Part shown: positions 39,780 to 64,000 of the stretch, piece by piece
Layout: every line of letters begins with the position of its first letter
Numbering within the stretch: position 1 is the stretch's first letter
Source of the DNA: an uncultured delta proteobacterium
Lineage (GTDB): Bacteria; Desulfobacterota; Binatia; Binatales; Binataceae
Reading direction: 5' to 3'
Length of the DNA stretch: 64,000 nucleotides
Assembly: GCA_963808235.1 (NCBI GenBank)
Contig: CAWEEQ010000004.1
Span: forward strand, 2,296,243-2,360,242
The notes under the pieces: model-generated
Seen by the model: the letters and a program-made list of their open reading frames with translations, nothing else
Databases searched by the model: none
What the model was told of the DNA's origin: nothing
Made by a program: the position numbers and the translations under genes

Positions 39780-39885
39780 GTCAGGTTAAGGCCGTTACGA
39801 GTGAGGGTCAAGGAAGCGGTCGAGCGATGCGGACGGATGGTGGACATAGCACTGCGCCGCGGTTTTGCTATGTTTCGAGTTATCG

Positions 39886-41361
39886 ATGGAAAGCAGACTG
39901 TTCATCGCCGGACGCTATATCGATGCCGCCAAATCCTCGCGCTTCGCCGACGTCGAGCCTGCGACTGAGCGCGAACTCGCGCAAGTCGCGAGCGCCAGCG
40001 CCGACGACGTCAATCGCGCGGTCGTTGCGGCGCGCGAGGCTGCCGATCACGGCCCCTGGCCACGCATGAGCGCCGATACTCGCGCGGGAATCATTGGCAA
40101 GTTCGCCGACGGGATCGAAAAGCGCGCGCGGGAACTGGGCACGCTCGAGGCGCGCGACGTCGGCAAGCCGGTCTCCGAGTGCGTCAATCACGACGTGTCG
40201 CGCGCGGCGCGCAATCTGCGCTTCTTTGCCGCCGCGGCGCAGACCTGGACTCATGAGGCGGCGCAAAGCGACGCGAAATTTCTCGGCCGCGATTTGAAGC
40301 TGGTGAACTTCACCGAGCGTCCTCCGGTCGGCGTCGGCGCGATCATCATTCCGTGGAACTCGCCGCTGATGCTCGCGACGTGGAACCTGGGCCCCTGTCT
40401 GGCCGCGGGAAATAGCTGCGTGCTGAAGCCGTCGGAGCTGGCGCCGCTCACTTCGATTGCGCTCGGTGAGATCGCGAACGAAGCGGGACTGCCGCGCGGA
40501 GTGTTGAGCATCGTGCCGGGGCTCGGCGACGCAGGCGCTGCGCTGGTGTCGCATCCAGGCGTCGACGCGGTCGCGTTCACCGGCGGCGTCGAGACGGGGC
40601 GACTGCGTGATGGCAAGCGCGGCGACGACGCTCAAGCGCGTGATGCTCGAACTCGGCGGCAAGTCGCCCAACATAGTATTCGCCGACGCGAATCTGAAAC
40701 GCACTGCCGCCGGAGTGGCGCGATCGATCTATCGCAGCCAGGGACAATCATGCGTAGCGGGCGCGCGATTGCTGGTCGAGAGCAGCGTCGCCGCGGAATT
40801 CATCGAATTGCTGATCGCCGAAATACCAAAACTGAAAATAGGCGACCCGCTGAAAGACGACACCGAGTACGGCCCGCTCATCTCGGGGGCGCATCGTGAG
40901 CGCGTGCATGCGCTGGTCGCCGACGCGATCGCCAACGGCGCGAGCGTGCTGGCGGGCGGCAAGATTCCCGCCGAGCCCGCGACCGGTTTCTACTATATGC
41001 CCACGATTCTCGACGGCGTCGACGCGAAGTCGCGCGCCGCGTCCGAGGAAATATTCGGGCCGGTGCTGACTGTGGAGAGATTCGACGACGAAGAGCAGGC
41101 AATCGCGAGTGCGAACGCATCGCGCTACGGCCTCGCGGCTTACGTATGGACCTCGAAATCGATCGCGCGCTCAGAGTCGCAAACTCACTCAAGACCGGGA
41201 TGGTGTGGGTCAACAGTTTCTTCTTGCGCGATCTGCGGACTCCGTTCGGCGGCGCGAGGATGAGCGGACTCGGCCGGCAAGGCGGCCGCTTCAGCATGGA
41301 GTTCTGGACCGAGCCGAAACTTGTTTGTATCGCTTACGGTGAGGAGGAGCACGATGGGTAG
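39886..41361 (+). pseudogene. Aldehyde dehydrogenase (CHMS-dehydrogenase-like) with two compensating frameshifts (+1 near 40605, -1 near 41150)
   Basis: ALDH motifs are split over three ORFs: ...VAFTGGVETGR | VMASAATTLKRVMLELGGKSP...EEIFGPVLTV...YGLAAYVWTS | IDRALRVANSLKTGMVWVNSF. The outer segments share one frame. Confidence 0.75.
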
Positions 41362-42272: not shown

Positions 42273-43162
42273 TTGAAACTTGCACGCGGAATATTGGCGA
42301 TGCTGGTGACGCCGTTTCATGATGATTATCGGCTGAATGAGGCGGCGCTCCGGAAAGAGGTGCAGTGGGCGATCGCAAGCGGCGCGCAGGGCGTGGTTGC
42401 GGCGCCGAGTATCGGCGAGTTCCTCCATATGAACGAAGCGGAACGTGCGAGAGTCTTCGAGATCGTCGTTGAAGAAGCGCGCAAGCATCCGAATGTCTCG
42501 ACAGTCGCGATGACCTCGGGCGCGACGACGCTCGAAACGCTCCACTACGCGAAGATCGCCGCGCGACTCGGATACGACGCGCAGCAGGTGATCCCGCCCT
42601 ACTACTGGCGATGCGGCGAGGCCGAAGTCGAGCGTCATTACAGGATGATCGCCGAGGCTGGCGATTTGCCGGTCGTCATCTACCACAATCCCGCGCTCAG
42701 CAAGTTCAACATCTCGCCGAAGTTTCGCGGGGAGACTCGCGACGATCGAGGGCGTCGTGGCATTCAAGGAAGTGCTGACCGATTTGCAGCATCTCGAGGC
42801 GCTCTACGACGAAGTGGACGGCCGCGCCGATATTTACAATACGTTTCGCGCGATGCTGGCCGGGTTGATGCTCGGAGCGGCCGGGCGGCTTCATCAACAT
42901 TTTCGCGGTGCCGGCGTCGGTCGCATTGATGAAGGCCTTCAAGGCCGGCGATTACAAACGCGCAGAGGAAATTCAGCGTCGTCTCAACCGATGCTTCCCG
43001 CGCGGTGGCGAGGAAACTCTGGGCCATCTCGGAACGACCAAAGTAACCGCCTCGGTAGCGACCGGAATCGAGATGGGTCCGGCGCGGCCGCCGTACATGG
43101 CGCCCGCGGACGCCGCGGAGCGAATCCGGAAACGCTTGCCGCTGCTCAACGAGGTCATCTGA
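42273..43162 (+). pseudogene. DapA/NAL-family (dihydrodipicolinate synthase-like) aldolase with two frameshifts (near 42726 and 42887)
   Basis: LAMLVTPF...IYHNPALSKFNISPKF | AGRLATIEGVVAFKEVLTDL...AMLAGLMLGAAG | GFINIFAVPASVALMKAFKAGDY lies across three frames. Confidence 0.7.
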
Positions 43163-55011: not shown

Positions 55012-56559
55012 TTACGGAGTGCAGCGGCCCGTGCGGATTGCGATTTCGCGCAGCTTGGCGACGCGCAACTTGATTGCGCGGCTGCGGCGCAGCCGTTCCA
55101 GGGTCATCGGCAATCTATATGTCCAGTTCGAATCGTCGACCGTGCCTGGGCGGTTGATTTGATCGGTCCATCCGTACAAATCCTGAATCGGAATGATCAG
55201 CAGGCGCGACGGAGCCGCGTAGAGCGCCGCGAGGATCGCGTCGCGCGCTGAGTCGTCGAGCATCGCCCGCGGATTCAGCCGCATTTCAATTCCGAGCGCG
55301 CGCACCAGCTTTTCGCGATCGGCAATGGACTGCTCGCTCCACCACGTCGTGAGAGATTCCGTATCGTGGGTGCCAGTGGTCGCAAGCGACAATTCAGGAT
55401 AGGTCGCGGGGCTCAGAAACGTTTCGTCGGGTTCGCCCCAATTGCGCTCCCATTGCATCACCTTGTATCCCGGCACACCGAGATGCGTAAGCGATGCGCG
55501 CACCCATGGCGGCACGGTGCCGAGGTCCTCCGCGATGATCTCAGCGGTGCCGGCTTCGTTCTTGATAGCGCGGACGATCTCCTCGCCCTGGATTCGCTGC
55601 TGGTCTTCGTTCTCGGGGGTGAAGACTCCGGCTTCATCGGAATCGGCGCCAAAGTTGAAAGTTCGATAAAGCCCGACCACGTGATCGATGCGGATCAAAT
55701 CGTAGCGCGAACTGGCGAGACGAACGCGCGCACGCAGGAATGTGAAGCCGTTGACGCGCATCCGCTCCCAGTGCGGCAGCGGCAGACCCCATCGCTGACC
55801 GGTGAGATTGAAACCGTCGGGGGGCGCGCCGACCGAGCGCACGAGATCGAAGTCATTTTGATTGGCCCATACTTCGGCGCTCTCGCGGCACGGCGAGAAC
55901 GCAAGGTCGCCGCCAATTCGCACTCCGCGCGCGGCCGCGTACGCGCGCATCGATGACCACTGACGATGCGCGACGAATTGCCAGTAGCGGTACATCTCGA
56001 TCGAGTCGGCCAATTCGCGCCACGCCGCCGCGAGCGCTTTGGGATCGCGGCGGACTAGCTCGGCGGGCCACGACTCCCAGCTCGACCATTCGAAATGTTC
56101 TTTCAACGCACGGAACAACGCGTAGTCGTCGAGCCAGTAGGCATTGGCCGTCGCGAAGGCCCCACGCTGCGCGGCCTCGTCGCGTCCGTCACGCGCGCCA
56201 GTCGCGCGATATGCGCGCTCGAGCAGAGCCAGCTTTTCGCGCCGCACCGTCAACCGAGGAACGACGCTTGCCTTTCCGACCGCCGTGCGTGCGCGGGCGA
56301 GCACGACGCGCCCTACTCCGGGAAGGTCGCGGATCGAGATGTACATTGGATCGATCGCATTCACGCTTAGCGCACTGTAGGGGCTCTGTTCGTCGGGGCC
56401 GGTCTCGTCGAGCGGCAGGAGCTGGATCACCGAGCAGCCCATCTCGATCGCGAAATCGATCGTCGGCGCGAGATCGAGAATCTCGCCGCGTCCGAGACTG
56501 TCGCGGGTGCGAAGTGAGAAGAGCGGCACAAGAACGCCCGCCGATCGGGTGACCATCAC
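55012..56559 (-). CDS. malQ: 4-alpha-glucanotransferase (amylomaltase, GH77)
   Basis: SAGVLVPLFSLRT...GEILDLAP...IQLLPL and a GDLAF catalytic region. Confidence 0.9.
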   Translation of the reverse strand: MMVTRSAGVLVPLFSLRTRDSLGRGEILDLAPTIDFAIEMGCSVIQLLPLDETGPDEQSPYSALSVNAIDPMYISIRDLPGVGRVVLARARTAVGKASVVPRLTVRREKLALLERAYRATGARDGRDEAAQRGAFATANAYWLDDYALFRALKEHFEWSSWESWPAELVRRDPKALAAAWRELADSIEMYRYWQFVAHRQWSSMRAYAAARGVRIGGDLAFSPCRESAEVWANQNDFDLVRSVGAPPDGFNLTGQRWGLPLPHWERMRVNGFTFLRARVRLASSRYDLIRIDHVVGLYRTFNFGADSDEAGVFTPENEDQQRIQGEEIVRAIKNEAGTAEIIAEDLGTVPPWVRASLTHLGVPGYKVMQWERNWGEPDETFLSPATYPELSLATTGTHDTESLTTWWSEQSIADREKLVRALGIEMRLNPRAMLDDSARDAILAALYAAPSRLLIIPIQDLYGWTDQINRPGTVDDSNWTYRLPMTLERLRRSRAIKLRVAKLREIAIRTGRCTP

Positions 56560-56609: not shown

Positions 56610-57368
56610 TCAGATCACGTAGCCGCCGTTGGGGCTGATTACCTGGCCGACCATGAATTTCGAATCCTCGCAGGCGAGGAACAGCGCGGCGGCGGCGATG
56701 TCACTTGGCTCTCCGAAGCGGCCAATCGGCGTGATCGCTTCTATCTGCTGGCGCATCTCGCCTTCGATGAACGAGGTCATCGGCGTGTCGATGAAGCCGG
56801 GCGCGATGCAATTGACGAGGATTCCCATCGCCACCACTTCGCGCGCGACTGACTTCGTAAACGAGATGATCCCGCCCTTCGCCGCGCAGTAGTCCGACGC
56901 GAACGCGAGCCCGGTCGTGCCTGCGATCGAACCGAGGTTAATGATGCGGCCTGACAGTTTCGGGATCATCACCTTGAGCGCCTCGCGGGTGCAGAAGAAC
57001 GTCGAGTCGAGATGCGTCGCGAGCATCTTGTGCCAATCCTCGTCGGTCTTTTCGTGAGTGGGGATGACCTCGCTCGACTCGCGAATCCGTCCAACGCCCG
57101 CATTGTTAATGAGTATGTCGATAGTGCCAAACGCCGCGATGAAGTCGGTGAACATTTTCTTGACGGCCGCGCTGCTCGAGACGTCGGCGACGAAAGGCCG
57201 CGCCTTGCCGCCGGCGCGCTCGATCTCCGTCGCGACGTTTTGCGCGGATTCGGGCTTGATGTCGTTGACGCCGACCTTTGCACCCTCGCGCGCGAAGGTC
57301 AGTCCCATCTCGCGGCCTAGACCTGATCCTCCGCCGGTGATCAGCACGACTTTGTCTTTCAGCTTCAT
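56610..57368 (-). CDS. SDR-family oxidoreductase (FabG-like)
   Basis: TGGGSGLG Rossmann motif, NNAG and YxxxK. Confidence 0.9.
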   Translation of the reverse strand: MKLKDKVVLITGGGSGLGREMGLTFAREGAKVGVNDIKPESAQNVATEIERAGGKARPFVADVSSSAAVKKMFTDFIAAFGTIDILINNAGVGRIRESSEVIPTHEKTDEDWHKMLATHLDSTFFCTREALKVMIPKLSGRIINLGSIAGTTGLAFASDYCAAKGGIISFTKSVAREVVAMGILVNCIAPGFIDTPMTSFIEGEMRQQIEAITPIGRFGEPSDIAAAALFLACEDSKFMVGQVISPNGGYVI

Positions 57369-57419
57369 CGCGACCCTCTCTCCACTTCATGTTCCCCTTC
57401 CCTCAAGGGAAGGGTTTGG

Positions 57420-57758
57420 CTATTTCTTGCCTTCCTTGAGTTGGCGTTTCCAATCGAGCCGGCGCGCTTCGGCGCCAGCAGCCTCGGCTTCCTGAATCAT
57501 GCCCTTCTTCTGGTAGAACATGCTGAGGTTGGTAAACGCCAAAATGTCTTCGGGCGCCTGCTCGATAAACTTTTTCGTCAGCTCGATAGCCGAATCGAGA
57601 TCGCCCTTGGCCTGATAGCACATGGTCATCCCATGGAGGGCGTCGACAAACTTGGGATCGATCTCGAGCGCCTGCTTGTATAGCGCGATCGCTTCGTCGA
57701 ATTTATCGTCGGCGTACGCGTCGATCGCTTCGTCGTAAAGCTCTTCCTTGTCGGCCAT
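57420..57758 (-). CDS. TPR-repeat protein
   Basis: Three TPR-like units (AIALYKQALEIDPKF...). Confidence 0.55.
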   Translation of the reverse strand: MADKEELYDEAIDAYADDKFDEAIALYKQALEIDPKFVDALHGMTMCYQAKGDLDSAIELTKKFIEQAPEDILAFTNLSMFYQKKGMIQEAEAAGAEARRLDWKRQLKEGKK

Positions 57759-57835
57759 CGTGAAACCTCCGCTGATGCAGGAGGGACGCACGGATACCGC
57801 GCGCCGCCACCCTCTTATATACTAGCTAGTGTCTT

Positions 57836-58153
57836 ATGGAGAATTCACCCGCACTCACTGAAGCCGAAGTCTACGAAGTGCTGCGCGAGTGCTACGACCC
57901 CGAAATACCGGTAAACCTCGTCGACCTTGGATTGATTTACGGCGTTGAGATCGAGAACCGCGTAGTCAACGTCACGATGACGCTGACGGCGCCCGGCTGC
58001 CAGATGGGCATGATGATCACGCAGGAGATCCAGGACAAGCTGCTCGGGATTCCCGGATGCGACGACGCCCTGGTGGAGATTGTGTGGGATCCGCCGTGGA
58101 CGCCGCACATGATGACCGAGGCAGCGAAAAAGCAACTAAAGATCGACGACTGA
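57836..58153 (+). CDS. DUF59/MIP18-family Fe-S assembly protein (SufT-like), second paralog
   Basis: CYDPEIPVNLVDLGLIYG...MTLTAPGCQMG...VWDPPWTP. It lacks the N-terminal extension seen in the 9016-9552 copy. Confidence 0.75.
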   Translation: MENSPALTEAEVYEVLRECYDPEIPVNLVDLGLIYGVEIENRVVNVTMTLTAPGCQMGMMITQEIQDKLLGIPGCDDALVEIVWDPPWTPHMMTEAAKKQLKIDD

Positions 58154-58156
58154 CGA

Positions 58157-58396
58157 CTAGTGTTCGGGAACGATTCGCAGATCAGCACTAACCGGTATTT
58201 CAAACAGATCGCCGCGTAAGAGGCGCGTTGAGAAGAACAAAACCTCGACGTTTTCGACTTCACCCGATTCAGGATTGAGCCGCACCACGACTTCGTCGGG
58301 CAGTTCTTCTGACTTTTGCGCCGGATACGGATCGCGTTTGTTGATGTACAAAATGTCGGCATCGCGGTCATATTTGAAACTTAACTTTGCTTCCAT
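58157..58396 (-). CDS. DUF2283 family protein
   Basis: MEAKLSFKYDRDADILYI...VVRLNPESGEVENVEV. Confidence 0.5.
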   Translation of the reverse strand: MEAKLSFKYDRDADILYINKRDPYPAQKSEELPDEVVVRLNPESGEVENVEVLFFSTRLLRGDLFEIPVSADLRIVPEH

Positions 58397-58466
58397 TCGA
58401 CATCTCCTGCCGCGATACTGCGCGCGATGTACGGACACGCGAACTTCTTCAAGTTGCCGCTCCCCT

Positions 58467-60080
58467 TCAGTCAGGATCGATCAGCACCCCCGGATTCAGA
58501 ATCGAGCGCGGATCGAGAGCCTTTTTTGCGGCCTTGAGCGCGAGTGCGAAGCCGTCGGGACGCTGGCGATCGTACCACGGCCGATGATAGCGGCCGACGG
58601 CGTGATGATGCGTGATCGTGCCGCCCAACTTGATCAGCTTGTCCGATACCGCGGATTTGATTTCATTCCACTGCTCGATTTCGGAGCCGCGTCTTCCCGG
58701 CGCAAGCACCGTGTAGTACGGCGCGGGACCGTCGGGGTAGACGTGCGTGAATCGGCACGTCACCGAACCCTTGCCGCACACGCGCGCGATCGCGTCGCGC
58801 GCGCATTCCATCATCTGACGATGAAAGTCCGGAAACCGCTCCCACGTGATCGAAGTCTCGAAAGTATCGCTGACCATTCCGAGCGCGGCGACGGTATCCA
58901 TCAGGTACGGCGCGTTCAGGAACGCGTTGCGCCATGCTCCCGCCGAGCCTTCGTGAGTTGCGTCGGCGTCGGTGCGAGTCTTTGCCGCGTCGGCGGGAAC
59001 TTTGCCGCCGTGATCGGCGCAGCACTCGAGCGCGCGCTTCATCCATGGTTCCAGTGGATGATCTGCGGACTCGAACGCGAGCACCAGCACGGCTTCCTCG
59101 CCATTGCCGGCGCCGGAGTTGAACGCCTCGCCTTCATCCAGGACGCGGCAATTCGCGGGATAGATTCCGGCCTGTGAGATCTGGCGAACTGCTTCGGCCG
59201 CTTTGAAGATGTCGGGAAACGGTACCGACGCGCCGGCGCGAAAGGTGGGCCGATCCTGCAGGCGCATCCACGCTTCAGTAATAACGCCGAGGATTCCTTC
59301 CGAGCCGATGAACATCCGATCGGGACTCGGGCCCGCGCCGGAACCGGGTAATCGGCGCGACTCGACGATTCCAGTTGGAGTGACGACGCGAAGCGACTCG
59401 ACGAAATCGTCGATGTGCGTATAGAGCGTCGCGAAGTGACCGCCCGAGCGAGTCGCGATCCATCCGCCGAGCGTCGAGAACTCGAACGACTGCGGGAAAT
59501 GCCGAATCGTCAGTCCGTGCGACTTGAGCTGCGCGTCGAGCGCGGGGCCGTAAACTCCCGCCTGGATTCGCGCGGCGCGCGAGACATTGTCGACTTCGAG
59601 GACTTTGTCCAGATGCATCAGATCGATCGAGACCGCGCCGCGATAGCGATCGTCGTTGGGCGGCTCAACTCCACCGACGACGCTCGATCCGCCGCCGTAA
59701 GGAACCGCCGCCAGCCGCGCACCGTCGCACCATTCGAGCAGCCGGAGCAGATCGTGCTCATCGCGCGGATACGCAACCAGGTCGATTGGATTTGGGTAGT
59801 CGCGCCGGAACGCGCGCCGGATATCGCCGGAACTCTTGCCGTAGGTGTGCCCCGCGCGCTCGTGGATGCTGGTCGAGCAAAGCGCTTCGAGTGCGGGCGG
59901 TGGCTTGATACGCGGCGCGCGGAGATTTAGTTCGCTCTCTTTTGGTGGCGGTATGAGTTCGAGCGGGCCAAGGCCGAATCGCTTGGCCATCCGCTCGGCC
60001 ATATGCTTTTGCTGCTCGAGATTCGGCCCCTGATCTTCGTAACCCCATCCCCAAAACTTTCGCTTGCGATTCTCCGCCAT
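58467..60080 (-). CDS. FAD-linked oxidase, alkyldihydroxyacetonephosphate synthase (ADPS)-like
   Basis: N-terminal FWGWGYED box, FAD-binding PCMH domain, and a C-terminal LDPRSILNPGVLID tail. Confidence 0.7.
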   Translation of the reverse strand: MAENRKRKFWGWGYEDQGPNLEQQKHMAERMAKRFGLGPLELIPPPKESELNLRAPRIKPPPALEALCSTSIHERAGHTYGKSSGDIRRAFRRDYPNPIDLVAYPRDEHDLLRLLEWCDGARLAAVPYGGGSSVVGGVEPPNDDRYRGAVSIDLMHLDKVLEVDNVSRAARIQAGVYGPALDAQLKSHGLTIRHFPQSFEFSTLGGWIATRSGGHFATLYTHIDDFVESLRVVTPTGIVESRRLPGSGAGPSPDRMFIGSEGILGVITEAWMRLQDRPTFRAGASVPFPDIFKAAEAVRQISQAGIYPANCRVLDEGEAFNSGAGNGEEAVLVLAFESADHPLEPWMKRALECCADHGGKVPADAAKTRTDADATHEGSAGAWRNAFLNAPYLMDTVAALGMVSDTFETSITWERFPDFHRQMMECARDAIARVCGKGSVTCRFTHVYPDGPAPYYTVLAPGRRGSEIEQWNEIKSAVSDKLIKLGGTITHHHAVGRYHRPWYDRQRPDGFALALKAAKKALDPRSILNPGVLIDPD

Positions 60081-60191
60081 AGAAATGTTCCTCGCATTTG
60101 CCGACTGCGCGATTTTGCGCTTGACGCAGCTTAGAGGGCAAACGCGAATTGAAGCTTGCGCAGATCCGGGTGAGGTCGTATCAATCAAGTC

Positions 60192-61085
60192 ATGAGCGAC
60201 AAAGAAATATCGGCACAAATCTCAGCGGCAGACCCGCATCCGCGGAAGAAACTCGAACTGCTCAACACCTGGATGTCATACGCGGACACCGGAAGCGGCG
60301 ACCCGGTAGTCTTTCTGCATGGCAATCCGACCTCGTCGTATCTCTGGCGCAATATCATTCCGCACGTCGCGCCGCTCGCGCGATGCATCGCGCCGGACCT
60401 GATCGGGATGGGCGCGTCAGGGAAGTCGGCGACGGGGACGTATCGCTTCGTCGATCACGCGCGGCATCTCGACGCGTTCTTCGAGGGCCTGAATCTCAAG
60501 AGCAAGGTCACTCTGGTCGTGCATGATTGGGGCTCGGCGCTCGGCTTTTATTGGGCATCGCGGCATCGCGAGGTCGTGAAGGGAATCGCGTACATGGAGG
60601 CGATCGTGCGGCCGCTGAAATGGTCGGAATGGCCGGCGGCCGCGACCGATGTTTTCAAAGCGATGCGCAGTCCGGCCGGCGACGACATGATCCTGAACCA
60701 AAACCTCTTCGTGGAGGTGATTTTGCCCCGCAGTGTCATTCGGAAACTGAGCGACGCCGAAATGAAAGAGTATCGCAAACCGTATGTGCAGGCCGGCGAG
60801 TCACGCCGTCCGATGCTCACCTGGCCGCGCGAGATTCCGATCGACGGCGAGCCCAAGGACGTAACCGAGATCGCGAAGGGCTACTCGGAGTGGCTAGCGA
60901 AGAGTCCGATGCCGAAGCTGTTCATCAACGCCGAGCCCGGCGTTATCTTGACGGGTCCGCAGCGCGAGTTCTGCCGCACGTTTCCGAATCAGCACGAGGT
61001 GACCGTCAAGGGCATGCACTTCATCCAGGAAGATTCGCCGCACGAGATCGGCGCAGCGATCGCCGACTGGTATCGCTCGATCTGA
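60192..61085 (+). CDS. Haloalkane dehalogenase (alpha/beta hydrolase, HLD-II)
   Basis: FLHGNPTSSYLWRNIIPH signature. Nucleophile elbow VVHDWGSALG. Confidence 0.85.
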   Translation: MSDKEISAQISAADPHPRKKLELLNTWMSYADTGSGDPVVFLHGNPTSSYLWRNIIPHVAPLARCIAPDLIGMGASGKSATGTYRFVDHARHLDAFFEGLNLKSKVTLVVHDWGSALGFYWASRHREVVKGIAYMEAIVRPLKWSEWPAAATDVFKAMRSPAGDDMILNQNLFVEVILPRSVIRKLSDAEMKEYRKPYVQAGESRRPMLTWPREIPIDGEPKDVTEIAKGYSEWLAKSPMPKLFINAEPGVILTGPQREFCRTFPNQHEVTVKGMHFIQEDSPHEIGAAIADWYRSI

Positions 61086-61270
61086 AGCTGATCAGCCAGG
61101 ACATGTTCGCCGTTCTCGATACGATCGGCGATCACTCGAAGCGCCAGCGCTTCGACAGCGGCGACCGCGCGAGCACGCGTCTTGCCGTACGCCATCACTC
61201 CGGGCAGATCGGTTACGTCGGCAATCCAGCGGCCGTCTACCTCGCGTTCGATTTCTAGCGTGAGCTTCAT
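60989..61270 (-). CDS. HicB-like (UPF0150) antitoxin-family protein, orphan
   Basis: MKLTLEIEREVDGRWIADVTDLPGVMAYGKTRARAVAAVEALALRVI. No HicA partner is visible. The 3' end overlaps the convergent dehalogenase gene. Confidence 0.5.
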   Translation of the reverse strand: MKLTLEIEREVDGRWIADVTDLPGVMAYGKTRARAVAAVEALALRVIADRIENGEHVLADQLQIERYQSAIAAPISCGESSWMKCMPLTVTSC

Positions 61271-61278
61271 GCGTCAAC

Positions 61279-62787
61279 TCAGCCCTGCCGGCGGTTGCGG
61301 AGCGCTGGGCGCGATGGCTTCGGCATGTGGATGTACAGCTTGTCGGCGGCCGGACGTCCGTCGGTGTGCATCGAGGGCGGGCGCATCGCGTACTTCACTT
61401 CTTTGGAATGCTCCGCGAACTGACGCTCGGGGTTGTACACGCTGTTGAACTTCCAGAGCATCTTGATGAAGTTCGTCTGCCCCTTGAGCGCGAGCCGGCC
61501 GGCAATCGACGCGACCGATTTCAGCGCGGCAAAGCCAAGATGCTTGCGATTGAGCACGTCCTGCGTCTTCACCAGCTCCTGGTAGAACTGGAGCAGCGGC
61601 AGCTTGGTCGGCAACACCGCGTGCTGGATGTCGAACAGGCGATAGTCGAGGGTCGTGAGCTTGCGCGATTCGGTGAACCACAACTCAGTGCCGGGATACG
61701 GTGTCGCGACCGTCAGGTGCACGATTTCCGGGATGCTCATCGCCCATTCGCGGATGACCTGGAAGCGGCGCTCATCCCATGACGGGTCCGCGATCAGGTT
61801 GATCGCGACGGTCAGCCCGATCTCGCGCGCGACTTCGAGCGCCTTGAAGTTGACGCCCATCGAGGAGCGCTTGCGATGCAGCTTCAGGCCTTCCTCGTCG
61901 ATCGCCTCGAGACCGAGGAACATGTATTCCATGCCGAGCGAGCGCCAGTACTTGAAGACTTCCGGGTTGCGGCATAGAACGTCGGCGCGGGTCTCGAGGT
62001 AATACTGTTTTTTGATTTTGCGCTTTTCGATTTCGTGGCCGATCGCGAAGCCATGCTCGGGATGGATGAACGCTACGTCGTCGACGATGAAGACGTTGGG
62101 CTCCTTGATCGAGAGCATATCTTCGGCGGCGGCTTCCGGAGTGGATTTGCGGTAGCTGCGGCCGTAGAAGGTCCAAGCGCTGCAGAAGGAGCAATCCCAC
62201 GGACATCCGCGGGTGAACTCGATCGACGCACACGGATCGAGCACGCCGATGAAGTACTTGTTGCGCTGCCGTCCGAGATCGCGCGCCGGGAAAAACTGGT
62301 CGAGGTCGTCGAGCATCACCGGCGTCGGTCCGGTGCCTCGCGTGGTCACGACGCCGGGGACTTTGCCGATTGCGCCGCCGTCGCCAATCGCGTCGAGCAG
62401 CATCGGGGTCGCGGTCTCGCCCTCGCCACGAATGATCGCGTCGATGTTTCCTCGCGCATGCTCCAGGATCTCGTCCGCAACGAACGAACCGCTATGGCCG
62501 CCGGTGAATACGAAGCAGTCCTTGAGAAGGCGCTTCACGTCGACGGCGAGGTCGATCACTTCGGGAACATTGGCGAGATAGTTGAGCGAGAAGCCGACCG
62601 CATTCGGACGAAAACTCTCAAGTTCCGCGTACAGGTCGCGGTGCTTGAAGATCTGCAGGTCGAGTATCCTGACGTCGTGGCCGGCAGCGCGCACCGCGGC
62701 GGCGACCCGTTCCATCCCGAGCGGTTCCAGGCGCAGGTAGATCTCGCTGTACATGAGCGGACTCGGGTGCACGAATAGGACCCGCAT
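61279..62787 (-). CDS. B12-binding-domain radical SAM protein (class B, HpnP/HpnR-like methylase?)
   Basis: N-terminal cobalamin-binding-like region (MRVLFVHPSP...). CX3CX2C in IEFTRGCPWDCSFCSAW. Start set at the ATG at 62787. Confidence 0.8.
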   Translation of the reverse strand: MRVLFVHPSPLMYSEIYLRLEPLGMERVAAAVRAAGHDVRILDLQIFKHRDLYAELESFRPNAVGFSLNYLANVPEVIDLAVDVKRLLKDCFVFTGGHSGSFVADEILEHARGNIDAIIRGEGETATPMLLDAIGDGGAIGKVPGVVTTRGTGPTPVMLDDLDQFFPARDLGRQRNKYFIGVLDPCASIEFTRGCPWDCSFCSAWTFYGRSYRKSTPEAAAEDMLSIKEPNVFIVDDVAFIHPEHGFAIGHEIEKRKIKKQYYLETRADVLCRNPEVFKYWRSLGMEYMFLGLEAIDEEGLKLHRKRSSMGVNFKALEVAREIGLTVAINLIADPSWDERRFQVIREWAMSIPEIVHLTVATPYPGTELWFTESRKLTTLDYRLFDIQHAVLPTKLPLLQFYQELVKTQDVLNRKHLGFAALKSVASIAGRLALKGQTNFIKMLWKFNSVYNPERQFAEHSKEVKYAMRPPSMHTDGRPAADKLYIHMPKPSRPALRNRRQG

Positions 62788-62857
62788 ATAAGTACCTCTG
62801 GCGGAGCGCATCTACGCTTTGCGTCAGCTCCGCGATTCGCTAGTCGTCGATCCCTAG

Positions 62858-62879
62858 TCGCGATTTTATCGCGATTTTA
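62858..62879. promoter_or_regulatory. Tandem direct repeat TCGCGATTTTA x2 in promoter region of the B12-radical-SAM gene
   Basis: Seen in the sequence, about 70-90 nt upstream of the rSAM start. A CTAGTCG x2 motif is adjacent. Confidence 0.3.
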
Positions 62880-63258
62880 CCCGCCTGACCAATCGGCCAG
62901 TCCGGGTCCGGGGCCATCCTAGTACACTGGCGAAGGTTAATGAAATAGCCGTGCGAGCCTCTGATAAGTTAGCTGTGCTAATATTTCGGGCGTGGAAGTC
63001 ATGGTGCCGCCTGAGGTTCCAAAAAAGAGAAGGTTTGTATTCGTGACGGTCGTGTTCGCGGCGGTGCTGATCGATGCGATTCTGCTGGCCCATGTCCACG
63101 CGCAATATGTTCATGACCACGGCTACGACGTTCGTCCGCGGCATCGCGCGGTCGCCAAGCCTGCACCTCCTTGACAGATCGTTCGATCGAATCAGAACAT
63201 CAATTGACCTGTAGCGGCCGCTCAGGCGAAAAAATCGACTAACCGATTTGGAGAAGTG

Positions 63259-64000
63259 ATGCATTATTCGAAACTCGGCAAAACCGGAATGACCGTCTCG
63301 CGCATCTGTCTCGGGTGCATGAGCTACGGGGACAAGAAATGGCGCGATTGGGTGCTCACGATGGATGAGGCGCGCGAGCATTTCGCGACCGCGCTCGAAT
63401 CGGGAATCAACTTCTTCGACACCGCGAACGTGTACTCGGTCGGGGTGAGCGAGGAGGTCACCGGGCGATGGCTCGGCGAGATGGCGAAGCGCGACGAGTT
63501 CGTGGTCGCGACCAAAGTGTACGGGCCGATGGCGTCGGGGCAGAATCGCGGCGGGCTTAGCCGCAAGAGCATTCTAGAAGCGTGCGAAGCGTCGCTGCGA
63601 AGGCTCAAGATGGATTTCATCGACCTGTATCAAATCCATCGATGGGACTACACGACGCCGATCGAGGAGACACTCGAAGCACTCGACTCGCTGGTGCGCG
63701 CGGGCAAGGTGCGTTACCTCGGCGCGAGCTCGATGGCGGCGTGGCAGTTCGCCAAGGCGCTCAGCATCCAGAAGGAAAACGGATGGCATCGGTTTGTCTC
63801 GATGCAAAACCACTACAACCTGGTGTATCGCGAAGAAGAGCGCGAGATGAATCCGCTTTGCATCGACAACGGAGTCGGACTGATTCCATGGAGTCCGCTG
63901 GCGCGCGGATTCCTTGCGGGCAATCGCGACAAGGGCGGTAGCGGCCCGACCGCGCGCGCGAAGACCGACGACTTTGCCAAGAACATGTACTTCCGCGAGT
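63259..64000 (+). CDS. Aldo/keto reductase (YajO/Tas-like), 3' end beyond window
   Basis: RBS GGAGAAG upstream. MHYSKLGKTGMTVSRICLGCMSYG...FFDTANVY...YLGASS. No stop codon before the window end. Confidence 0.85.
   Translation, partial: MHYSKLGKTGMTVSRICLGCMSYGDKKWRDWVLTMDEAREHFATALESGINFFDTANVYSVGVSEEVTGRWLGEMAKRDEFVVATKVYGPMASGQNRGGLSRKSILEACEASLRRLKMDFIDLYQIHRWDYTTPIEETLEALDSLVRAGKVRYLGASSMAAWQFAKALSIQKENGWHRFVSMQNHYNLVYREEEREMNPLCIDNGVGLIPWSPLARGFLAGNRDKGGSGPTARAKTDDFAKNMYFRE

Follow-up and report, generated by a model that had tools for sequence, protein, structure and literature searches.

Do four adjoining genes of an uncultured bacterium form a single lipid-modification island, or are they independent residents of an ordinary chromosomal neighbourhood? 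The question is raised by a stretch of 64,000 nucleotides, hereafter the window, from a member of the Binataceae (assembly GCA_963808235.1, contig CAWEEQ010000004.1, positions 2,296,243 to 2,360,242) and numbered here from its first nucleotide. The genes specify an FAD-linked flavoenzyme homologous to alkyldihydroxyacetonephosphate synthase (ADPS; open reading frame (ORF) 58467..60218, minus strand), a haloalkane dehalogenase (60192..61085, plus strand), a HicB-like protein (ORF 60989..61270, minus strand) and a B12-binding radical SAM protein (61279..62811, minus strand). All four ORFs lie where the original prediction, made from the nucleotide sequence, had placed them, and both motifs that it quoted, RKFWGWGYED in the flavoenzyme and YFIGVLDPCASIEFTRGCPWDCSFCSAWTFYGRSYR in the radical SAM protein, were found. 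It proposed that the genes act together to produce ether-linked and methylated membrane lipids. Our comparison with related genomes points instead to a chromosomal neighbourhood of ordinary Binataceae type, in which hpnR, a decayed hicBA module, a dehalogenase gene and an FAD enzyme of a bacterial sister group of ADPS probably act independently.

The best matches of the region belong to genomes named Candidatus Binataceae, with identities of up to 95% for HpnR and 92% for the FAD enzyme. Nucleotide identity between the window and the nearest species representatives does not exceed about 87%, and the window therefore represents a separate species within this lineage of uncultured soil bacteria.

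Gene order around hpnR

Out of at least 594 genomes with a match to HpnR, 80 loci in named genomes were selected; 6 loci on metagenome contigs were added, and the whole set was searched with every protein of the region. Loci of relatives carry labels of the form L001, L002. The FAD enzyme gene occurs within 10 kb of hpnR solely in a Binataceae subclade whose HpnR proteins are at least about 77% identical to that of the window. The members of this subclade share a backbone with the order aldo/keto reductase, hpnR, a variable slot, FAD enzyme, SufT-like protein, TPR protein, FabG-like SDR and GH77 glucanotransferase. The content of the slot changes from genome to genome and includes a HicB-like gene with or without hicA, the dehalogenase gene, an enoyl-CoA hydratase gene, a gene for an S8 peptidase of 1179 aa, or inserts of about 6-7 kb. 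Opposite-strand genes within the slot interrupt the path from hpnR to the FAD enzyme gene in the window, L002 and L004, so co-transcription of the two is unlikely. Two relatives, L021 and L022, retain the backbone and the dehalogenase gene without any FAD enzyme gene, the dehalogenase gene then abutting that of the SufT-like protein (L021:12407-13329, L022:12408-13529). Outside the subclade the association disappears: where HpnR identity is 75% or lower (62 loci), a search as permissive as E<=1e-3 detects no FAD enzyme homologue up to 10 kb away. These loci include other Binataceae, Rokubacteria/Methylomirabilota, Dongiaceae, Acidobacteriota, Streptomyces and Planctomycetes. Restriction to one subclade, the variable slot and the relatives devoid of the FAD enzyme gene together argue that the proximity of hpnR to this gene is inherited synteny with no functional link.

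In the window, the backbone is represented by genes for the GH77 4-alpha-glucanotransferase (55012-56559, minus strand), the FabG-like SDR (56610-57368, minus strand), the TPR protein (57420-57791, minus strand), the SufT-like Fe-S assembly protein (57836-58153, plus strand) and, at the left edge of the synteny block, the aldo/keto reductase (63259..64000 and past the window end, plus strand). The order GH77-SDR-TPR-SufT is kept in L004, L013, L015, L017, L021 and L022 and partially kept in L002, L010, L011 and L020. Orthologues of the aldo/keto reductase (PF00248) occupy the same position in L001 and L004, and the protein is 78-91% identical in 21 relatives. No downstream backbone was found within 10 kb in L007 and L008, whose HpnR is 93% identical to that of the window, which implies a large insertion or rearrangement in these two genomes.

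The region has no compositional signature of an island either. The GC content of the four-gene locus (0.59-0.61) falls within the range observed over the window (0.56-0.65), and this flat profile, together with the backbone synteny across species, leads us to reject a horizontally acquired island. The term used in the original prediction is thus not supported by the composition, and the HpnR loci compared do not preserve the four genes as a unit. The radical SAM gene had also been described as divergent. It is transcribed in the same direction as the FAD enzyme gene and converges on the dehalogenase gene; it diverges solely from the aldo/keto reductase gene.

A coordinated lipid-modification island making ether-linked and methylated membrane lipids is consequently very improbable. 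It would agree with the genuine nature of HpnR, with the homology of the FAD enzyme to ADPS and its retained catalytic residues, with the location of hpnR and the FAD enzyme gene on one strand at 10 kb or less from each other in 12 Binataceae relatives, and with the presence in relatives of hpnK about 7 kb away. Besides the slot that parts the two genes, the FAD-less L021 and L022, the 0/62 adjacency in other lineages and the flat GC profile, it is contradicted by the position of the FAD enzyme outside ADPS proper and by its surroundings, in which no FAR/GNPAT, GlpD or DagK gene was found nearby and no shc or hpn gene was seen in the window. Moreover, we know of no role of haloalkane dehalogenases or HicB proteins in lipid synthesis. 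When about 40 further large ORFs of the window were scanned for domains, they showed housekeeping and catabolic functions and no shc or hpn gene, no search having been aimed at shc itself. The sole other lipid-related genes seen, both generic, belong to Mla-type phospholipid transport and encode a permease (MlaE) and an ABC ATPase (1108-2719). The absence of other lipid-modification genes among those seen in the 64 kb and the weakened ether-lipid reading of the FAD enzyme both speak against the joint membrane-lipid chemistry originally proposed.

The hopanoid methylase gene hpnR

The radical SAM gene can be firmly assigned on the basis of its protein sequence. Its product matches the NCBIfam equivalog model of HpnR (TIGR04367) with 856.8 bits for a cutoff of 650, residues 9-497 covering model positions 1-489 of 490. 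The runner-up family, BchE, reaches 130.9 bits, and HpnJ likewise scores far below HpnR. The protein combines a B12-binding domain (PF02310, 69 bits) with a radical SAM domain (PF04055, 60 bits). The segment YFIGVLDPCASIEFTRGCPWDCSFCSAWTFYGRSYR holds the CxxxCxxC motif formed by C203, C207 and C210, CPWDCSFC beginning at residue 203. The ORF encodes 510 aa. The start is probably at 62787, giving 502 aa, as residue 9 is the first one aligned to the family model and MRVL opens the homologous proteins. Proteins of relatives are 70-95% identical and are labelled HpnR in Binataceae metagenome-assembled genomes, while lookup of the exact sequence of the window protein returned no record. The suggestion of an HpnP/HpnR-type enzyme thus resolves to HpnR, rather than to an unrelated clade of B12-dependent radical SAM proteins.

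This is the only clearly membrane-lipid gene of the four. Its product would methylate hopanoids at C-3, and the production of C-3-methylated hopanoids is a reasonable prediction if the genome makes hopanoids. HpnR was reportedly first demonstrated in Methylococcus capsulatus, in work of 2012 attributed to Welander and Summons. The window protein, known here from its sequence, shares with known HpnR proteins the architecture of a B12-binding domain followed by a radical SAM core with CxxxCxxC, and a full-length match above cutoff. It differs in belonging to an uncultured Binataceae host and in being encoded outside any hpn/shc cluster. In two close relatives, L010 and L004, a gene for HpnK scoring above cutoff is located about 7 kb from hpnR, past the aldo/keto reductase and M1 peptidase genes, and L004 additionally carries an HpnG-like gene with a sub-threshold score. 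The equivalent position of hpnK in the present genome would fall just beyond the window end.

The gene is widespread across soil lineages, Binataceae and many others alike, and the scan matched at least 594 genomes at species level. The distribution of HpnR (TIGR04367/K22704) is discussed in PMC5462960 and PMC12324291. Our literature search found no paper tying Binatota to hopanoid methylation, though public annotations of metagenome-assembled genomes already use the name. Two hpnR loci outside the subclade have distinctive surroundings. In a Rokubacteria metagenome-assembled genome (L006:6194-14395), hpnR lies among genes for a 3-beta-HSD/epimerase, a cytochrome P450, two MlaA proteins and an MMPL/sterol-sensing transporter, a neighbourhood far more lipid-focused than that of the window. 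In an unrelated uncultured bacterium with an HpnR 71% identical to that of the window (L030:6501-8935), hpnR is followed immediately, on its own strand, by a gene for a 66%-identical haloalkane dehalogenase; nowhere else outside the syntenic Binataceae subclade were the two genes adjacent.

The FAD enzyme, a relative of ADPS

The FAD enzyme gene (58467..60080, minus strand) encodes a protein of 537 aa composed of PF01565 (FAD_binding_4) and PF02913 (FAD-oxidase_C) domains. The ORF is open up to a TTG at 60218, an unlikely start; the ATG at 60080 is the most likely one because homologues measure 535-538 aa. One NCBI homologue (P0123) reaches 923 aa, perhaps through fusion or an error in ORF calling. 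The GlcD model scores 140.8 bits for a cutoff of 567.9, and among solved structures the best matches are the ADPS of Dictyostelium (2uuu, 230.7 bits) and of guinea pig (4bby, 191.6 bits), with D-lactate dehydrogenase at 97 bits. Residues R312, T445, Y455 and H491-493 align with R419, T568, Y578 and H615-617 of the guinea-pig enzyme, and the N-terminus includes the RKFWGWGYED box. Catalytic roles have reportedly been established for guinea-pig Arg419, Tyr578 and the His615-617 loop, in studies attributed to Razeto (2007) and Nenci (2012). An AlphaFold2 model computed from an alignment of 23 sequences had a mean pLDDT of 60, with the FAD domain below 50, and was too poor for a fold search.

The ADPS-like character noted in the original prediction therefore stands insofar as the protein is closer to ADPS than to GlcD or D-lactate dehydrogenase. 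Of the three outcomes that the prediction itself had named as refuting it, two did not occur. Membership of ADPS proper does not. A neighbour-joining tree was built from 81 sequences with 100 bootstraps; it is unrooted, leaves out the GlcD outgroup and Myxococcus xanthus MXAN_1676, and some of its representatives are fragmentary. It separates a group of 32 members including the Dictyostelium ADPS (group A) from the window protein and all plasmid homologues (group B) in 99 of the 100 replicates, while the placement of the window protein inside group B is poorly resolved (26-46% support). About 25 representatives of bacterial clusters score 290-440 bits against the Dictyostelium ADPS, compared with 209 bits for the window protein. 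The cap segment counts 14 residues in the window protein versus a median of 37 in group A. Identity amounts to 32% with the Dictyostelium ADPS as opposed to 48-58%, over the full length, with plasmid homologues. Sequence comparison thus places the FAD enzyme in a large bacterial sister group (AgpS/PCDH-like) outside ADPS proper. It shares with ADPS/AGPS (EC 2.5.1.26; 2uuu, 4bby) the VAO-type FAD domain and cap, the WGWG box and the Arg/Tyr/HHH residues, and differs from them by its low identity, its group and its shorter cap segment.

Neither the motifs nor the name discriminates function. The WGWG-type box and the catalytic residues were found in both groups, and the plasmid homologues also carry the RKFW(G/S/T)WGY box, the THHHAVG loop, the Arg and the Tyr. 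They are likewise automatically named alkyldihydroxyacetonephosphate synthase in JGI and UniRef, JGI applying this name to the whole family. Since box, residues and name are common to catabolic homologues, the FWGWGY box, offered in the original prediction as a sign of ADPS, loses its diagnostic value. The supposed rarity of such enzymes in bacteria is also contradicted by the size of the family, which comprises at least 8000 clusters at 90% identity (E<=1e-20), 1612 clusters at 50% identity (E<=1e-30) and 41 plasmid records.

Gene context differs between the groups. The group A genes of Dehalococcoidia (Chloroflexi) belong to a conserved operon of three genes, the other two of which encode a glycerol-3-phosphate dehydrogenase of the GlpD type and a lipid kinase of the DagK/YegS type (L094:7001-11255, L095:7001-11299, L096:7001-11266); this operon may be an uncharacterised bacterial ether-glycerolipid module. 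In M. xanthus the AGPS gene is located in an operon with a FAR-GNPAT gene (bioRxiv 10.1101/2025.10.10.681575). The plasmid homologues were found in Mycobacterium dioxanotrophicus, Xanthobacter dioxanivorans, Sphingopyxis macrogoltabida, Aminobacter, Polaromonas JS666, Rhodococcus and Moraxella. Their neighbours encode a GMC oxidoreductase, aldehyde dehydrogenases, glutathione S-transferase (GST), glutathione reductase, adenylate-forming enzymes and GlcDEF, a layout which is that of glycol-ether, polyethylene glycol (PEG) and dioxane catabolism. The window enzyme is 50-51% identical to products of plasmid genes adjoining GST in PEG, dioxane and glycol-ether clusters, including 51% to that of S. 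macrogoltabida EY-1. Pairs annotated as FAD-binding oxidoreductase and GST occur at L089:6968-9316, L090:5971-8326 and L092:5968-8323.

A passage of PMC7299911 (citing Somyoonsap 2008 and Tani 2007) describes the PEG-carboxylate dehydrogenase (PCDH) of Sphingopyxis as an FAD enzyme, encoded with a GST, that splits alkoxyacetates at the ether bond and releases glyoxylate. The gene context suggests that the plasmid FAD enzyme and GST genes probably correspond to PCDH. Among the names of 40 of the 388 cluster members, PCDH did not occur; these names read only FAD-binding oxidoreductase or ADPS. A text search of the literature found no statement placing PCDH in a sequence family, and the Xanthobacter YN2 transcriptome paper does not mention the FAD gene. 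The PCDH candidates of plasmids match the window enzyme in length class and motifs. The window gene differs from them in being chromosomal, conserved (74-92% identity across Binataceae) and devoid of their partners: no gene for GST, aldehyde dehydrogenase, GMC dehydrogenase, acyl-CoA ligase or GlcDEF was found beside it or beside the Binataceae orthologues examined.

We infer that the FAD enzyme would use an RO-CH2-C(=O)-type substrate. Synthesis of ether lipids seems a less likely role for it than the oxidation or cleavage of an alkoxy or hydroxy acid, in the manner of a dehydrogenase or an enzyme that cleaves ethers. A working alkyl-dihydroxyacetone phosphate (DHAP) synthase, supplied with acyl-DHAP and fatty alcohol by enzymes encoded elsewhere in the genome, is an unlikely but not negligible alternative. 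The ADPS structures as top matches in the PDB, the conserved equivalents of R419, T568, Y578 and H615-617, the WGWG box, the family name used by JGI and the strong conservation within Binataceae would all agree with it. Yet the catabolic plasmid homologues possess the same residues, box and automatic name, the protein falls outside the group of the Dictyostelium enzyme, and its cap segment is shorter. Furthermore, the vicinity of the FAD enzyme gene in the window and the gene lists of L001, L002 and L004 contain neither FAR/GNPAT nor GlpD/DagK genes, unlike the Chloroflexi operon and the AGPS/FAR-GNPAT operon of M. xanthus, the species of MXAN_1676. The other nine syntenic relatives were checked solely for the window's own genes.

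The haloalkane dehalogenase

The dehalogenase gene (60192..61085, plus strand) encodes 297 aa and belongs, as originally predicted, to the HLD-II type (LinB/DmbA). Its product scores 433.6 bits against NF002938 (cutoff 241) and its top PDB match is the haloalkane dehalogenase 7pw1 (397.8 bits), LinB (1cv2) following with 379 bits. Residues N45, D112, W113, E136 and H276 align with N38, D108, W109, E132 and H272 of LinB, leaving the catalytic pentad intact. Matches to the LinB/DmbA structures (1cv2, 2qvb, 7pw1) are full-length, at 357-398 bits, with an identical Asn-Asp-Trp-Glu-His pentad. By its family membership the enzyme would hydrolyse haloalkanes to alcohols. It differs from these relatives in being encoded in a variable chromosomal slot rather than in a catabolic operon.

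The dehalogenase and FAD enzyme genes are divergent and separated by a spacer of 111 nt (60081..60191). This block is colinear in L009, L010, L015, L019 and L020, and the pair is also present in L002 and L016. It might constitute a small catabolic pair, in which the dehalogenase would free an alcohol from a halogenated alkane or ether and, after oxidation to an alkoxy or hydroxy acid, the FAD enzyme would oxidise or cleave the product. The conserved block, the location in ether-catabolic clusters of the nearest FAD enzyme relatives with informative context, and the fact that the substrates of both enzymes carry or yield a C-O bond are consistent with such a pairing. Each gene is however found alone, the FAD enzyme gene in L001, L004, L011, L013 and L017 and the dehalogenase gene in L021 and L022. 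No alcohol or aldehyde dehydrogenase gene adjoins the pair, none of the 7 plasmid clusters inspected has a dehalogenase gene of this type, and the scan found no promoter or operator signal in the 111-nt spacer. The catabolic pair is thus improbable.

A remnant of a hicBA module

The HicB-like ORF (60989..61270, minus strand, 93 aa) has its domain at about 61091-61270, and its tail corresponds to an antisense read-through of the 3' end of the dehalogenase gene. Its Pfam matches are sub-threshold only (UPF0150, 14.9 bits; HicB_lk_antitox, 12.9 bits) and form a weak basis for the assignment. Stronger support comes from L002, where a 70% identical orthologue is followed by a true HicA (PF07927, 49.4 bits). 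A hicA gene also follows the HicB-like gene in L011, L013 and, in part, L012. No HicA-like sequence was found anywhere in the 64-kb window, and DNA alignment shows that about 290 nt bearing hicA are missing from it. As hicA is kept in relatives and lost with this segment in the window, the orphan HicB noticed in the original prediction is real and represents a decayed toxin-antitoxin module. Comparison with the relatives shows that a hicBA-type module once lay directly downstream of hpnR, and that deletion of hicA left the HicB-like remnant. As in type II HicAB modules, the relatives pair a small HicB/UPF0150-like protein with a PF07927 HicA. The present module differs in that the antitoxin-like gene comes first, in its sub-threshold Pfam scores and in the deletion of the toxin gene in the window.

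A second small gene (58157..58438, minus strand, 93 aa) encodes a DUF2283 protein (PF10049, 31.4 bits for a cutoff of 23). It is a window-specific insert between the genes of the FAD enzyme and the SufT-like protein: no relative aligns over 58154-58460, and no partner gene was found. The dehalogenase-FAD enzyme block is thus flanked by two lone antitoxin-like genes, the DUF2283 gene and the HicB-like remnant.

Regulatory signals and interrupted genes

An Rfam scan of positions 57000-64000, including the spacer of about 450 nt between hpnR and the aldo/keto reductase gene, in which a cobalamin or SAM riboswitch might be expected, returned nothing at E<=1. In a scan for promoters and terminators, the only promoter-like site lay upstream of hpnR; neither this site nor the six that resemble terminators exceeded the expectation from shuffled sequences. 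Elsewhere in the window, an aldehyde dehydrogenase ORF (39865-41263) spans only positions 4-219 of a 461-position profile and a DHDPS-family ORF (42273-43162) only positions 3-146 of 289, each followed by a further ORF in another frame. These truncated ORFs look like frameshifts, that is, pseudogenes or assembly errors.

Independent genes or a functional association

Several observations weigh against regarding these genes as independent and the FAD enzyme as catabolic. The divergent pair of dehalogenase and FAD enzyme genes recurs in 7 relatives, hence in 8 genomes with the window, and hpnR and the FAD enzyme gene are at most 10 kb apart in 12 of the 16 relatives with enough flanking sequence. 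Every mappable catalytic residue of ADPS is kept and an ADPS is the best solved-structure match, so that ADPS-type chemistry is possible on sequence grounds; the lipid partner genes could be located elsewhere in the genome, beyond the window. No catabolic partner gene of the plasmid type adjoins the FAD enzyme gene, whose high conservation and chromosomal location fit a core function better than xenobiotic catabolism. Finally, the separation from ADPS proper comes from an unrooted neighbour-joining tree with fragmentary members, without the GlcD outgroup and with a loosely placed window protein, and the equation with PCDH draws on gene context rather than on sequence. Against these points stand the variable slot, the FAD-less relatives and the restriction to one subclade, and independent action of the four genes remains the probable interpretation.

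A more speculative possibility, which we consider quite unlikely, is that group B as a whole consists of ether-bond enzymes acting on RO-CH2-C(=O)- substrates. The Binataceae member would then work with the dehalogenase on natural halogenated or ether compounds, or belong to an ether-lipid route free of FAR/GNPAT. If such a route existed, 3-methylhopanoids and ether lipids in soil would both have an overlooked source in the Binataceae, which are abundant there. Our literature search found no link between Binatota and ether lipids or dehalogenases.

Implications

Every gene of the locus fits an existing family model, and near-identical genes of public metagenome-assembled genomes carry the same names, so that the locus itself offers little new biology. 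Its modest value lies in two points of interpretation. The ADPS label is automatically applied to a bacterial sister group whose members with informative context are catabolic and probably ether-cleaving. The name is likely a systematic mis-annotation of the plasmid pairs, and genome surveys that count such ADPS matches as ether-lipid capacity likely overcount it. In addition, the broad spread of hpnR is one more reason not to read 3-methylhopanes as markers specific to methanotrophs.

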